Shown one piece after another: positions 24,470 through 55,827 of a stretch of 64,000 nucleotides of DNA. Each line of letters begins with the position of its first letter. The stretch's first letter is position 1. The stretch is taken from the NCBI GenBank assembly GCA_963748295.1, contig CAVVIH010000005.1:459500-523499 (forward strand). Reading direction: 5' to 3'. Origin of the DNA: an uncultured Acidobacteriota bacterium (GTDB lineage: Bacteria; Acidobacteriota; Vicinamibacteria; Vicinamibacterales; 2-12-FULL-66-21). A program made the translations under genes and the position numbers. The notes under the pieces were generated by a model that was given only the letters and a program-made list of their open reading frames with translations, searched no databases and had not been told where the DNA came from.

Positions 24470-24696
24470 GAATCCGCGACAATCAGCGTCCCGCGATCCT
24501 TCTGATCCGTGGAATCCGCGACAATCAGCGTTCCGTGATCCTCCTGATCCTGGATCCGCGACAATCAGCGTTCCGTGATCCTCCTGATCCCTGGATCCGC
24601 GACAATCAGCGTTCCGTGATCCTCCTGATCCGTGGAATCCGCGACAATCAGCGTTCCGTGATCCTCCTGATCCGTGGAATCCGCGTCTCCGCTGAT
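24470..24696. repeat. Tandem array of 5 full and 1 partial copies of a 41-42-bp unit GAATCCGCGACAATCAGCGTTCCGTGATCCTCCTGATCCGTG
   Basis: Unit boundaries are 24470, 24512, 24553, 24594, 24635 and 24677. Copies 2-5 differ by only 1-3 nt. There are no spacers, so it is not a CRISPR array. Confidence 0.92.
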
Positions 24697-48338: not shown

Positions 48339-50228
48339 TTATCGGCTGGAGCCGGTCCCGGACGATGGGGCGGAAGAACTGTGTAACTCGTAGACGTGGA
48401 CGGGACGGCCCTCCCATTTCGCCTGCACGAGCGGCCGGATGTCCGGCATCGCGTCGAGCACGTTCAGGATCGTGTCACACCGGTTGCCGTAGAAGGCGCA
48501 ATTCACCGTGACGTGGGTGACCCCGCGCTGTCTCAGCAGCCGGAACGCGTCCGCGTCCGGAAAGCCCGCAAGTCCTCTGGCGACATCGGTATAGTCGGGT
48601 GGGAAGAAGCCGCTGTAGCCGTTCACCATCGCCGCGCCGTGCCAGACGGAGAAGTACATGTAGATCAGGTTGTCGTCCAGATCGGCGAGCTGCCGGGGGA
48701 ACGGAAACTCGGCCAGCACGACGTCCGTTCGTCCCGCCAGCGAGGCGTAAACGGGTGGGGGGGAATGCCACACCGGCCGCAGCCGGAGGATCGGCTGGAA
48801 GTCCACCATGACGGCAACCACGAGCAGGCCGAAGACGATATGGCCCCTCGTCCCTGGGTGCCGCCGCAGAATTCGCCGCGCGCCGAATCCCGACAGGATC
48901 GCCAGGCTGAGGCCGACCAGAATGCTGAACCGTGCGGGGACGCGCAATCCGCGGATTGGCGGGAACCACTCGTACAAGGCCGGGTACAGCAAGCCGTTGA
49001 ACCCGAGCGATCCGTCGAACGCGACAAAGAGACCAGCGAGCGCCGCCAGTCGAGTCGTTCCGATCGGCGGCAGGAGCCCAGCGCCCGACAGGATCAGGGG
49101 GCTCAATCCCGGAAACAGCGCCCGTTCCGGTTTACGGCCTGGCAGCGTAATCGTCCCGTAGCGCGCGCTGCGAAGATCGGCGCGCAGGTAGTCGGCCGGC
49201 GTGGCGCTCAGGTCCGTCACGGTGCCGACGTCGCGAGCGCCTTTGCGCGCCTGCGCCGCCAGGTACGGCCGCGCGAGCGGGATCGCGATCACCACGGCGA
49301 CGGCAGCCGCGGCAAAGGCCGGCTTGATCAGACGGCGGAGTGCGACCCGGCGCACCCTGCACAACACCGCCGAGACTGCGACGCTGTACAACGCGAAAAA
49401 GACGCCGTAATAGAGCGACGAGTAGAGCTGCGCCACCCAGCACAACGCCGCGACGGCCGCATCGCGGAGACGGAGCGTCCCGATCGCGCGATCGATCGCC
49501 AGGAGCGCCAGCGGCATCCACGCGGTCATCTGAAGCTCGAGGTGGCTGTAGTGCTCGAAGCGATAGGGATAGAAGCCAAAGATGATCCCGGTGATGAAGG
49601 CGGCACGCGCGGACCCTGTCCATTTGAGCGCGAGCAGATAGGCGGCCGCGGCTGAGAGCAGGAACCCCGAGAGGAACAGCACGTTGTACACGACGACCGG
49701 GTGCAGGCCGATCGCGACGAGCGGCGCCGCCATCACCGACGGCAGCAGCATCGAATCGGAGTAGGTGAGCGTCAGCGGCTCGGGATGAAAGATGTTCGCG
49801 TCGAACAGCGGCCGCGGATCGCCGGTCAGCTGCCGGTAGACCCACGACATCCGCCAGATCGAAAACAGCGGGTCGCCGAGATCGGGAACCGAGGACATCG
49901 CGGAGAGCTGCGGGTGCAGGAGAATTGCGGCGACCGCGCAGAAACCGAGGATGGCCGCGAGGTGTGCTTTCCCGGCCCCCGGCCCCCGGTCCCCGGCCCC
50001 TGAACCATCAGCGTCCGGCACGTACAGACGGTCGCGCAACCTGCGCCAGGACGAACCGCTGACGCCCAGGAACCCCGTCCGGCGATCGAGCGCGACGCGC
50101 AGCGCGACAATGCCGAGCGCGATCAGGAGGCCGCGGTCCGGACTGCGCGCGGAGATGCGGACGCCTTCTGTCCGGCTGAAGAAGCCGCCGGTCAGCACGA
50201 TCGCGGCGACCCCGAGCGACGCGAGCAC
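48339..50228 (-). CDS. Large polytopic membrane protein, GT-C-fold (ArnT/PMT-like) glycosyltransferase candidate, paralog A
   Basis: 629 aa, more than 10 TM helices. Contains DLGDPLFSIWR...FDANIFHPE...YRFEHYSHLELQMTAWMP and a C-terminal soluble domain. It is collinear with 56937-58871. Confidence 0.55.
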   Translation of the reverse strand: MLASLGVAAIVLTGGFFSRTEGVRISARSPDRGLLIALGIVALRVALDRRTGFLGVSGSSWRRLRDRLYVPDADGSGAGDRGPGAGKAHLAAILGFCAVAAILLHPQLSAMSSVPDLGDPLFSIWRMSWVYRQLTGDPRPLFDANIFHPEPLTLTYSDSMLLPSVMAAPLVAIGLHPVVVYNVLFLSGFLLSAAAAYLLALKWTGSARAAFITGIIFGFYPYRFEHYSHLELQMTAWMPLALLAIDRAIGTLRLRDAAVAALCWVAQLYSSLYYGVFFALYSVAVSAVLCRVRRVALRRLIKPAFAAAAVAVVIAIPLARPYLAAQARKGARDVGTVTDLSATPADYLRADLRSARYGTITLPGRKPERALFPGLSPLILSGAGLLPPIGTTRLAALAGLFVAFDGSLGFNGLLYPALYEWFPPIRGLRVPARFSILVGLSLAILSGFGARRILRRHPGTRGHIVFGLLVVAVMVDFQPILRLRPVWHSPPPVYASLAGRTDVVLAEFPFPRQLADLDDNLIYMYFSVWHGAAMVNGYSGFFPPDYTDVARGLAGFPDADAFRLLRQRGVTHVTVNCAFYGNRCDTILNVLDAMPDIRPLVQAKWEGRPVHVYELHSSSAPSSGTGSSR

Positions 50229-50805: not shown

Positions 50806-52093
50806 TCAGGGGTCGGCCCGGCCGAGGACGACCGCGCTGTTCTTGGATCCGAATCCGAGGCAGTTGCACAGCGCGGCGACCGGCGCCGCGGGCCGACCGG
50901 TGTTGGGGATGAAGTCGAGGTCGCAGGCAGGATCGGCCTCCGCCTGGTTGATCGTGGGCGGCAGGAATCCTTCCTTCAAGGCGAGCGCGCTCGTCACGAT
51001 GCCCGCCGCCCCGCTGGCGCCCTGCGGGTGGCCGATCATCGACTTCGTCGACGAGCCCGGAACCGAATCGGCGAGGCGCCCGAACAGCTGCCGGACGCAG
51101 CGCGCCTCGACGGCGTCGTTGAGCACGGTCGACGTGCCATGAAAGTTGACGTAGCCGATTTCCTCCAGGGCGCGGCCGGAGCGTTCGATCGCGAGCTGCA
51201 TCGCGCGCACGATCTGTTCGCCGTCGGGATCCATCTGGACGCGATGATACGCGTCGCACGTCGATCCGTGACCGTCCACCGTGGCGTAGATGGTCGCGCC
51301 GCGCGCCCGCGCGCGGTCCTCGCGCTCGAGCACCACCATCCACGCGCCCTCACCGAGCACGAAGCCGTCGCGGCCGTTGTCGAACGGCCGCGACGCCGCG
51401 GCCGGCATGTCGTTGTAGCGCGTCGCGACGGCGCGCATCTTCGAGAAGCCGAAGATCATGCCTGGCGTCACGCAGGCGTCGGCGCCGCCGGAGAGAATCA
51501 CTTCCGCTTCGCCGGCGCGGATGAGGGACGCCGCATACGAGATCGCATCGGTGGAGCTGGTGCAGCCGGTCGAGAGCACGTGGCTGATGCCGTGCAGCTC
51601 CAGCGCGATCGAGATCTCGCTCGAGATCATGCCGACGATCGACACGGGAATCGCGTACGGCGTCACGCGCTTCCAGCCGTCGTTGAAGAACTCGTAGTAT
51701 TGCCGCTCGGCGACGTCGATGCCGCCGGCGCCGCTGCCGACCAGCACGCCGGCGCCGGGCTCGGCCAGCCGCAGGCCGGCGTCGTGCCAGGCTTCTCGCG
51801 CCGCGATCACCGCAATCAGCGACGCCTTCGAGTACCGGCGCGGGTCGGCGCGCCCGTGCGCCGTTCTGCCCGCCGTTCTTCGCGCGCCCGGCAATCGTCA
51901 CCGCGTCATCGATCGAGACGGCGGGAACAGGAGCGGCCACGGTGCAGGGAAATGCGGAGGCGTCGAAGTCGGTGATCGCGCGTGTCGCGCTGCAGCCTTG
52001 ACGGACGTGCTGCCAGAAGCGGTCGCGGCCGACGCCATAAGGTGAGACCACGCCGATGCCCGTGATTGCGACACGGGGCGCGCCCGACGCCAT
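50806..52093 (-). CDS. Beta-ketoacyl synthase with a type-II-PKS-like active site (1 frame slip near 51855)
   Basis: MASGAPRVAITGIGVVSPYG | ...HVLSTGCTSSTDAI (Cys codon 51562-51564; FabF would read ACATG), FHGTSTVLND and MIGHPQGASG (the two His). Confidence 0.8.
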
Positions 52094-52146
52094 CCCTCTA
52101 TGATGTATCCAACTACGTGCCAACTGCCAACTGCAAGTGAGCGCGC

Positions 52147-52321
52147 CTACGTACCATGTGCGACGTGCGACGTGCCACGTGCGACGTGCCACGTGCGACG
52201 TGCGACGTGCCACGTGCGACGTGCTTACGTGCCACGTACATTCTTACGTCCCACGTGCGACGTGCGACCTGCGACGTGCCACGTGCGACCTGTCACGTGC
52301 TATGTGCTATGTGCTGACGTG
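52147..52321. repeat. Heptanucleotide tandem array, about 24 units of C(G/C)ACGTG with degenerate ends
   Basis: Nine in-phase units lie at 52161-52223 (CGACGTG/CCACGTG), followed by an interruption. About 10 more units lie at 52251-52321. CAACTGC heptamers occur at 52120-52133. The array fills the divergent region 52094-52334. Confidence 0.92.
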
Positions 52322-52334
52322 CTAAGGTGTCGGC

Positions 52335-53048
52335 GTGCCGGCAGCCGGGGCGGCGGCGATCTCGTGGCTGGGTGCGGCCGCCTTCGCGGCATCGCTGGGC
52401 TGGTTTCTCTACTGCTATCTCGTCACCTGGGGCGTCCCGGCGCCGGAGGGTCCTGTCGCGCGCCCGGTGCTCGTCGACGTCGCCCTCTTCTCCTTCTTCG
52501 CGCTGCACCATAGCGTCTTTGCCAGGACCGGCCTGAAAGCCCGGCTCGTGCGCCTGGTGCCGGTTGAACTCGAACGCTCGCTGTACACCTGGATTTCCAG
52601 CGCGCTGTTCGTGCTCGCCTGCACGCTGTGGCAGCCGGTGCCGGGCGTGGTGTATCGCGCCGAAGGGCTGGCCGCCGTTGCCGGCTACCTGGTGCAGGCC
52701 GCGGGAATCGCACTCACCCTCTACGCCGGACGCAGCATGGACTTCCTCGATCTGGCCGGCGTGCGGCAGGTCCAGATTGCCGCGCGCGGCCGCCAGCCCG
52801 CGCACGTCGCGCTGCAAACCACCGGCCTGTACGGATTCGTGCGCCACCCGCTGTACTTCTCGTGGGTGCTGATGGTCTTCGGCTCGCCGGCCATGACCGC
52901 CACACGCCTCACGTTCGCGCTGACGAGCACCGCGTATCTCGCCATCGCGATTCACTGGGAGGAGCGCAGCCTCGTCGGGCTCTTCGGCGGAGCTTACGTG
53001 CAGTATCGCCGGCACGTGCGGTGGCGGATGATCCCTTATCTGTACTAG
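52335..53048 (+). CDS. ICMT/PEMT-superfamily membrane methyltransferase (237 aa)
   Basis: GTG start with AAGGTG 6 nt upstream. Contains GLYGFVRHPLYFSWVLMVFG and IHWEERSL. Confidence 0.7.
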   Translation: MPAAGAAAISWLGAAAFAASLGWFLYCYLVTWGVPAPEGPVARPVLVDVALFSFFALHHSVFARTGLKARLVRLVPVELERSLYTWISSALFVLACTLWQPVPGVVYRAEGLAAVAGYLVQAAGIALTLYAGRSMDFLDLAGVRQVQIAARGRQPAHVALQTTGLYGFVRHPLYFSWVLMVFGSPAMTATRLTFALTSTAYLAIAIHWEERSLVGLFGGAYVQYRRHVRWRMIPYLY

Positions 53049-53097
53049 CCGCGGAATTTCACTAAACGCGGATCTTCGCGGATTTCCGCGGATTCGG
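53049..53097 (-). repeat. Inverted partial copy of the AATCCGCG repeat family
   Basis: The reverse complement reads CCGAATCCGCGGAAATCCGCGAAGATCCGCGTTT. It is the same family as 53311-53454 and 24470-24696. Confidence 0.7.
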
Positions 53098-53198: not shown

Positions 53199-53310
53199 GC
53201 GCCAGCCCGGCCGACGGCCGGGCTGCAGGCTGCCTGACGTGCGACGTCCGTGCCGCGGCAGCTGTCACATCACCTGAGGATGCGTTTGATGAAGATCTGC
53301 ATCTTCGATC

Positions 53311-53454
53311 AATCCGCGTAAACCCGCGAAATCCGCGTTCCGTTTAGAATCCGAGTAATCCGCGAAAATCCGCGTTCCGTTTCAATCCAGTAGATCCGCG
53401 AAAATCCGCGTTCCGTCTACAATCCGAGGAATCCGCGAAAATCCGCGTCTTTGC
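53311..53454 (+). repeat. Tandem array of about 4 copies of a 36-37-bp unit AATCCGAGKAATCCGCGAAAATCCGCGTTCCGTTT
   Basis: Units start at 53311, 53348, 53384 and 53421. The core AATCCGCGA-AATC-GCGTTCCGT is shared with the 24470 array. Confidence 0.88.
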
Positions 53455-53511
53455 TATGATTCGCTGATGTCCGCGTCCACCCGCGGGTTCGCCGTGACCG
53501 CTATCTGAACC

Positions 53512-55827
<2,316 letters not shown>

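Follow-up and report, generated by a model that had tools for sequence, protein, structure and literature searches.

The ketosynthase-methyltransferase spacer and its array

The stretch analyzed here (the window) comprises 64,000 nucleotides of contig CAVVIH010000005.1 from an uncultured Acidobacteriota bacterium of the order Vicinamibacterales. Within it, a ketosynthase gene and a methyltransferase gene diverge from a spacer that consists largely of tandem heptamers of the type CSACGTG (S being C or G). An initial annotation had read this spacer as a switch in which gain or loss of units rotates and re-spaces two divergent promoters, i.e. as a dedicated phase-variation locus. The locus contains the following features:

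50806-52093, minus strand: FabF-type beta-ketoacyl-ACP synthase (ketosynthase), start codon the reverse complement of ATG at 52091-52093
52094-52334, no strand: ketosynthase-methyltransferase spacer, 241 bp, largely heptamers
52099-52104, plus strand: TATGAT, a -10-like hexamer 5 nt from the ketosynthase start codon, counterpart of the TATAAT of distant orthologs
52100-52105, minus strand: CATCAT, overlapping TATGAT, 6 nt before the ketosynthase ATG
52118-52134, plus strand: array A, TGCCAAC/CTGCCAA heptamers, 2.4 copies
52158-52223, plus strand: array B1, nine in-phase units at 52161-52223 with a degenerate unit before them
52224-52250, plus strand: non-repeat island CTTACGTGCCACGTACATTCTTACGTC, 27 nt, between B1 and B2
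52251-52322, plus strand: array B2, about ten units decaying towards the methyltransferase gene (CGACCTG, TCACGTG, CTATGTG, CTGACGTG)
52324-52329, plus strand: AAGGTG, Shine-Dalgarno-like, 5 nt before the methyltransferase GTG start
52335-53048, plus strand: membrane methyltransferase of the ICMT/PEMT fold, 237 aa, GTG start at 52335

Tandem Repeats Finder placed the main array at 52158-52322 (period 7, 23.6 copies, 77% matches, score 151) and a short TGCCAAC array of 2.4 copies at 52118-52134, which matches the CAACTGC heptamers annotated initially at 52120-52133. Read in register, B1 contains six CGACGTG and three CCACGTG units (52161-52223) and B2 about ten increasingly degenerate units at 52251-52321, in agreement with the nine and about ten units first counted there. 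Allowing at most one mismatch, the two-unit pattern CSACGTGCSACGTG matched 15 times against 0.71 expected, with 14/15 matches inside the array, and none of 100 shuffles reached 15. By Tandem Repeats Finder, in-register reading and the shuffle test alike, the array is present where the initial annotation had located it, and it is far beyond chance. Its unit number is that of one assembled consensus rather than of reads; the unique segments CTCTATGATGTATCC and GCTAAGGTGTCGGCGTG can serve to anchor the spacer length. A two-unit “echo” of the array claimed upstream of lon proved to be a chance match with two mismatches at 53235-53248: six such CSACGTGCSACGTG-type matches lie outside the array vs 8 expected for the whole window.

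The largely alternating purine-pyrimidine runs first described were confirmed as far as the raised alternation is concerned (80% of steps in the array vs 54% in the window), but the longest strict run measures only 9 nt, and no long uninterrupted run of the Z-DNA type was found in the array. The putative leader folds at -94 kcal/mol over 240 nt with no single dominant hairpin (z = +1.2 vs dinucleotide shuffles), and the opposite strand of the spacer is likewise not stabler than its shuffles (z = -0.3). Folding gave no sign of a selected hairpin or cruciform in the spacer. Rfam covariance models gave 0 matches at the gathering threshold anywhere in the window.

The sole conserved promoter-like element at the locus is a TATAAT-like box that adjoins the ketosynthase start and lies outside the array. 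Such a hexamer was found at most about 12 nt from the ketosynthase start in 55 of 69 independent orthologous spacers, 49 of which carry the exact TATAAT; the spacer of these 55 more distant loci is short and free of an array. In most distant orthologs (among the loci L004-L082, e.g. L010, L012, L021 and L024), the 7-mer TATAATA is located 5 nt from the ketosynthase start codon. In the direction of the methyltransferase, whose ATG follows about 10 nt later, it reads TATAAT; in the direction of the ketosynthase, whose ATG follows after 6-7 nt, the other strand reads TATTAT, a geometry typical of a leaderless transcript. This conservation suggests that the box acts as a shared bidirectional -10 for two leaderless or near-leaderless transcripts in distant orthologs, and TATGAT/CATCAT may serve both genes of the window. 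Here, the array is positioned between TATGAT and the Shine-Dalgarno-like AAGGTG. If TATGAT is the methyltransferase promoter, the array is probably transcribed as a GC-rich 5' leader of ~225 nt; since it lies downstream of the box, unit changes would shift the distance from box to ribosome-binding site and not a -35/-10 spacer. A consensus scan for sigma-70 promoters and terminators gave no match and no -35/-10 pair between 51900 and 53600.

Other promoter readings were tried and rejected. A sigma-54 promoter was considered for array A, which reads as TTGGCAC units on the ketosynthase strand, and for the GGAAAGCGGCTTACGAA motif of relatives; in both cases the -12 GC element and the spacing, inspected by eye, do not fit. 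Taking TTGGCA of array A as the -35 of a leaderless ketosynthase transcript gives spacers of 12 or 19 nt. As the proximal end of array A is fixed, these stay constant whatever the unit number and provide no re-spacing mechanism.

Orthologs without TATAAT (L008, L018, L031, L034, L035, L048) carry a conserved (CT)GGAAAGCG(G/C)CTTACGAA adjoining the ketosynthase start, which keeps to the ketosynthase side despite a 2.1-kb gene inserted before the methyltransferase in L034 and L048. The sequence CTTACGTG within the island at 52224-52250 resembles the 3' half of this motif. It also occurs in the array-less spacers of the distant relatives L038, L049 and L018, and it may have seeded the array of the window.

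Alleles in relatives and heptamer arrays across the lineage

Fourteen independent assemblies, made by different pipelines (JGI, ENA) from different samples, show homologous arrays with identical flanks on both sides, and the array is therefore not an assembly artefact. The window, L001, L003, L198, L002 and L202-L211 all share an identical segment GCTAAGGTGTCGGCGTG, and the Shine-Dalgarno-like sequence appears as AAGTTG and AAGGTT in L199 and L200. Measured anchor to anchor between identical flanks, the alleles have these lengths:

Window: 242 nt
L001 and L208: 200 nt
L003 and nine contigs from other samples: 193 nt
L198: 165 nt

Spacers of close relatives measure 199, 192, 147 and 253 bp, next to 241 bp in the window. 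When the window, L001 and L003 were aligned, every gap was a multiple of 7 (35, 7 and 14 nt) and the flanks were otherwise nearly identical. Block B1 is shorter by 35 nt, i.e. five units, in all four close sequences, L001 and L003 among them; in block B2, L001 has one unit (7 nt) and L003 two units (14 nt) fewer than the window. As read from these alignments, this is slippage-type gain or loss of whole units between strains, and the whole-heptamer changes predicted by the initial annotation were thus borne out.

All seven sequence-distinct spacer alleles at a methyltransferase identity of at least ~80% differ in both length and composition of the array. L198 combines 5.7 copies of TGCCAAC, the counterpart of array A, with ten of CGACGTG. 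At ~80-84% methyltransferase identity, L199 carries 16 copies of TACGTGC together with GTGCCAG-type units, L002 a short mixed array, and L200 (139-199) an 8-nt unit, CACGTAAG, in 7.6 copies with 94% matches, so that the period is not strictly 7. The counterpart of array A consists of GTGCCAG units in L002, L199 and L200. The island CTTACGTGCCACGTACATTCTTACGTC is conserved in L001, L003 and L002 and absent from L198.

The methyltransferase protein P0121 was found on contigs from ten samples, nine of which have the 193-nt and one the 200-nt allele. Together with L003 and L001, these contigs form one near-identical strain group of 12 assemblies with just two lengths, 193 nt in 10 and 200 nt in 2, whose arrays also differ by a few point substitutions. 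At the consensus level, the array behaves as a slowly evolving variable-number tandem repeat (VNTR), and two lengths among 12 assemblies speak against a phase-variation locus.

The order of ketosynthase, methyltransferase and lon is kept in ~70 metagenome loci. In relatives with a methyltransferase identity of at most 62%, the spacer is mostly 12-90 bp long and without an array, and L201 (68% identity) has an array-less spacer of 24 bp, CAT-CCTTC-TATGAT-AGT-AGGTG-TAGGC-GTG. Judging by these short spacers in distant orthologs, the arrays arose within one clade, delimited by a methyltransferase identity of at least ~80%.

In order to survey tandem repeats without regard to the repeat unit, we used loci totalling 290 kb for which the methyltransferase protein was the only selection criterion. 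Period 7 was the commonest period (25/61 arrays, plus 8 with a multiple of 7), with units as diverse as GAAAGCT, GTGCCGG, GGTTCAA, TTCGCTA, CCAACGC, TAACTCG and CGCGGAT, and the period-7 arrays were often located in the orthologous methyltransferase-lon spacer. In the window itself, 2/4 tandem arrays have period 7. We then asked whether an open, coding-like frame runs through an array, a stricter test than overlap with called genes. For relatives' loci and the window together, such a frame was absent from 83/85 testable period-7 arrays; the two coding exceptions are a CCCGGCC tract at 49971-50000 of the window and its ortholog in L002.

A scan for three consecutive CSACGTG units, with one representative genome per species, matched at least 115 stretches, and 54 of the 115 matches listed belong to Acidobacteriota; the source genome does not appear among those listed. 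Further CSACGTG arrays, which the initial annotation had proposed to look for, occur genome-wide in related metagenome-assembled genomes (MAGs), at 2-10 or more loci per MAG: at least 10 in MGR_bin286, at least 6 each in SMAG_U774 and SMAG_U3631, and at least 5 each in MFD02360.bin.1.21 and MFD04212.bin.1.190. The other matches listed come from Gemmatimonadales, Planctomycetota, Anaerolineales, Acidimicrobiia, Methylomirabilota, Rhodothermales, Bacteroidota and other groups. Convergent origin, shared mutational bias or binning contamination may account for CSACGTG in several phyla. Among the matches listed, the non-Acidobacteriota loci (L083-L197) hold at least 57 ACGTG-type arrays, 17 of them with six units or more.

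Heptamer arrays built from other units were counted as well in the Acidobacteriota CSACGTG loci, 29 in all, corresponding to ~7.8 per 100 kb. Period-7 arrays in these loci are flanked by genes in all arrangements (18 and 13 co-directional, 17 convergent, 7 divergent). ACGTGCG arrays occupy four convergent 3'-3' spacers; all eight flanking open reading frames (ORFs) have Pfam domain matches, and in those checked the match extends to the C-terminus:

L140: acyl-CoA dehydrogenase (left), PRC-barrel protein (right)
L110: OmdA (left), FtsX permease (right)
L143: Ser/Thr kinase (left), SGL (right)
L153: ClpB-like ATPase (left), radical SAM (right)

Arrays as long as that of the window also occur 3' of genes, e.g. 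in L164, where a peptidase S9 gene is followed by 30 units. The presence of CSACGTG in convergent, non-promoter spacers marks it as a generic satellite, the very pattern that the initial annotation had named beforehand as speaking against a dedicated phase-variation locus. The whole convergent spacer is filled by the array in L140 (7 and 4 nt to the stop codons) and L143 (2 and 1 nt).

The orientation of these arrays was analyzed for 41 ACGTG-type arrays read as ACGTGCG (L104-L196). At most 30 nt from a gene's 3' end, 19 arrays are sense vs 6 antisense; ACGTGCG-type arrays show a tendency to start 0-15 nt past the stop of a co-directional gene, and 11 of the 12 sense arrays in co-directional spacers adjoin the upstream stop codon. 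Over all flanking genes, no significant orientation bias was found (24 vs 16, p = 0.27, and 20 vs 12). The skew at stop codons could reflect a replication-strand G/C skew or the need for an intact downstream promoter, and we regard it as a lead, not a finding.

A second heptamer family has an AACT core (CCAACTG, GGCAACT, GGTAACT, CAACTCC, TAACTCG) and sometimes forms inverted array pairs. It was seen at 52118-52134 of the window, in L198 (78-117), L024 (6527-6550), L066, L032 (433-465), L119 (1561-1592), L151 (706-833) and L072 (3714-3751).

Flanking genes and other repeats of the window

In the window, a 1-nt insertion near 51856 (51847-51862) relative to L002, L003 and L007 divides the ketosynthase gene between two frames, which marks either a pseudogene or a base-calling or assembly error. 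The intact protein of relatives has 423-428 aa or more (428 aa in L002 and L202-L206). For the methyltransferase, the best NCBIfam match, to the methanethiol S-methyltransferase MddA, scores 152 bits and falls short of the equivalog cut-off of 270 bits, and several of its homologs carry the name methanethiol S-methyltransferase at JGI. An exact look-up of its protein sequence found no record. The next gene after it is lon, at 53512. Annotations of homologs and the CSACGTG scan assign the lineage to Vicinamibacterales (Acidobacteriota). The initial annotation had counted both flanking genes among the usual phase-variable class, but neither a FabF-type ketosynthase nor an MddA-like methyltransferase is an obvious target of surface variation.

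The CCCGGCC tract at 49971-50000 comprises 4.3 copies within a 629-aa ORF on the minus strand (48339-50228), for which no Pfam or NCBIfam match was found. It is conserved in L002 (4033-4065) and probably encodes a Pro/Gly-rich linker.

Two longer arrays of the window, at 24470-24685 (42 bp, 5.2 copies, between phoU and citrate synthase) and 53310-53448 (37 bp, 3.8 copies, upstream of lon), share the core GAATCCGCGA(C/A)AATC(A/C)GCGTTCCGT, which is also present, inverted, at 53067-53094. Both end ~10 nt before a -10-like hexamer (TAGAAT near 24696; TATGAT at 53454-53459). The sequence AATCCGCG occurs 19 times in the window vs 6.9 expected, with 13/19 occurrences within these two regions. The longer arrays could represent a dispersed repeat family or an array of regulator sites. 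In relatives, ATCCGCG-type heptamers were observed in the methyltransferase-lon spacer (L032, L074, L053).

Interpretation and relation to known heptameric repeats

Taken together, we consider it likely that the array is an ordinary, lineage-typical intergenic heptanucleotide microsatellite (a VNTR) and no dedicated on/off switch for the flanking genes. Genomes of Vicinamibacterales and related Acidobacteriota carry many arrays of 7-nt period, with very diverse units and nearly all in non-coding DNA, and one clade (methyltransferase identity of at least ~80%) has expanded such arrays inside a spacer that was once a few tens of bases long. Whole units would be gained and lost by replication slippage, and units would be point-mutated and then re-amplified, giving rise to variants such as GTGCCAA, GTGCCAG, GTGCCAC, GTGCGAC and CACGTAAG. 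Selection on the array would be weak or absent; if it is transcribed as a leader, length changes could still modulate expression as a side effect.

As for the switch, the idea that the array rotates and re-spaces two divergent promoters is at odds with the only conserved -10-like box, TATGAT, lying outside and upstream of the array. Judged from conservation, the tract would thus neither lie between nor overlap a -35 and a -10. The repeat is also not restricted to a small set of contingency genes.

Several points weigh against the microsatellite explanation. The 64-kb window contains only one large intergenic heptamer array, and the genome-wide statement is built on related MAGs and metagenome contigs rather than on the source genome. 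The 19 sense vs 6 antisense arrays near stop codons hint at a strand-specific constraint and hence at some function, and pure neutrality does not predict that the CSACGTG unit recurs in several phyla. Consensus assemblies are blind to length heterogeneity within a population, where the switching rate may be high. Finally, the placement of the array relative to promoter and leader is deduced from the conserved box.

It is conceivable, though in our estimation unlikely, that the locus serves as an expression rheostat or contingency locus, in which the unit number tunes the methyltransferase through its 5' leader or the ketosynthase from upstream of its promoter. Whole-unit polymorphism between close strains, the position between the conserved -10-like box and the ribosome-binding site, a slippage-prone in-phase block of 63 bp and the precedent of (ATCTTTC)n upstream of Haemophilus influenzae hmw1A (PMC12721329) are all consistent with this. 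However, like arrays are found both in convergent spacers and on the 3' side of genes, the array as a whole is degenerate (77% matches), and the 12 assemblies of one strain group show two lengths only. Moreover, the putative leader is not stabler than its shuffles and has nothing like the long hairpin of hmw, and the flanking genes are atypical contingency targets.

Even less probable, in our view, is a strand-oriented system of heptamer arrays, genome-wide in Vicinamibacterales and either maintained for a transcript function or made by a dedicated mechanism. If it existed, the arrays would be REP-like 3'-UTR (untranslated region) or leader elements, or a platform of 7-nt register for RNA- or single-stranded DNA-binding proteins; the array of the window would be a 5'-leader instance, and other soil phyla sharing CSACGTG would possibly be included.

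We regard it as improbable, too, that (ACGUGCG)n is a strand-specific RNA element, i.e. a protein-binding platform or a REP-like stabiliser or terminator that is usually found in the 3'-UTR and here in the 5'-UTR. The sense excess of arrays close to gene 3' ends and their adjacency to upstream stop codons fit such an element, as does the array of the window, which is sense to the methyltransferase. On the other side, the orientation bias over all flanking genes is not significant, the skew could have the alternative sources named above, and no motif is common to the units of other arrays; in the window, no Rfam family matched, and fold stability does not exceed that of shuffles on either strand.

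A binding-site array for a regulator of CACGTG or an ACGT-core palindrome, with cooperative control of the divergent genes, is very doubtful. CCACGTG units do create CACGTG palindromes at 7- or 14-bp spacing, but only 3/9 in-phase B1 units contain one (the others read CGACGTG), orthologs substitute TGCCAAC, CTGCGTG or the 8-mer CACGTAAG, like arrays lie in promoter-less convergent spacers, and successive sites spaced 7 bp apart fall on different sides of the helix. A mis-assembled or chimeric low-complexity join is hardly credible as the origin of the array given the 14 independent assemblies with homologous arrays and identical flanks, even though some related contigs break off at or near it (L200 begins within the spacer, L198 50 nt into the ketosynthase) and the nearby window ketosynthase has a 1-nt frameshift.

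The microsatellite explanation also places the array among repeats known from other bacteria. A general excess of heptamer repeats was reportedly noted by Mrazek, Guo and Shah in 2007. The array belongs to the known class of bacterial intergenic heptameric repeats, here in a new phylum: it repeats a 7-nt unit head to tail (period 7, 23.6 copies), its relatives show the period-7 excess and the confinement to non-coding DNA, and the same locus is polymorphic in length and sequence between close relatives. In the searched literature, no report of such heptamer repeats was found for Vicinamibacterales or Acidobacteriota. Heptameric repeats are described as over-represented in many bacterial genomes, intergenic and length-variable between close relatives, and are tentatively ascribed to polymerase slippage, in a passage of Rehm et al. 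2015 (PMC4692102) that cites Mrazek et al. 2007. The examples of that study are (GGGAATC)n of Xanthomonas, with ~185 arrays per genome, and (GGGGAYT)n of Nostoc (Rehm et al. 2015, PMC4692102). Like these, the arrays described here have a 7-nt unit, are almost only intergenic, occupy many loci per genome with heterogeneous units in 2 to ~30 copies and show no tie to a gene class. Unlike them, the units here are not G-rich and are unable to form quadruplexes, and Vicinamibacterales and Acidobacteriota use many unrelated units with no single dominant motif.

Further relatives are the cyanobacterial STRR heptamers (Calothrix PCC 7601, Anabaena) and the TAACTGA direct repeats of Beggiatoaceae, Cyanobacteria and Bacteroidetes (MacGregor 2015, PMC4679880). 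These are likewise tandem intergenic heptamers, often near gene starts, and post-transcriptional roles have been proposed for them. Array A (CCAACTG), GGCAACTGGTAACTG in L024 and L066, and TAACTCG in L072 resemble TAACTGA. However, TAACTGA sets consist of 2-6 copies of one conserved unit a few nucleotides before start codons (PMC4679880), whereas the arrays here are long, vary widely in their units and turn up in every intergenic context.

For a heptamer in a leader, the best functional analogue would be hmw1A. The (ATCTTTC)n repeat of H. influenzae hmw1A/hmw2A is part of the 5'-UTR transcript, and expression falls in inverse proportion to its copy number; it is perfect and locus-specific, switches within populations and forms a long hairpin cut by RNase III (PMC12721329). 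Both cases have a heptamer between promoter and start codon with a unit number varied by slippage, promoter, slippage and leader transcription being putative here, but the array of the window is degenerate and generic and its fold signal is not above shuffles. A comparison with promoter-spacer tracts is also instructive. Classical cases of promoter-spacer phase variation include the TA repeats that separate -35 from -10 in H. influenzae hifA/hifB and the poly-G/poly-C tracts in the Neisseria porA/opc promoters, which are short, perfect and located between or overlapping -35 and -10. The spacer shares with such cases a slippage-prone repeat in a divergent intergenic region, but its array spans 165-230 bp and lies downstream of the only conserved -10-like box.

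For this locus, the outcome is deflationary: what looks like a phase-variation switch of the pathogen type is one of the lineage's generic microsatellites. The wider observation is of modest value: the Vicinamibacterales, an abundant and largely uncultured soil order, very strongly favour tandem repeats of 7 nt in their non-coding DNA, at roughly 8 arrays for every 100 kb of related loci, with a rapid turnover of units at orthologous positions. The arrays are likely a cause of contig breaks in short-read soil metagenomes, and they are natural strain-typing markers for Vicinamibacterales populations. They add a high-GC, non-cyanobacterial and non-Xanthomonas case to the unexplained bacterial excess of heptamers.

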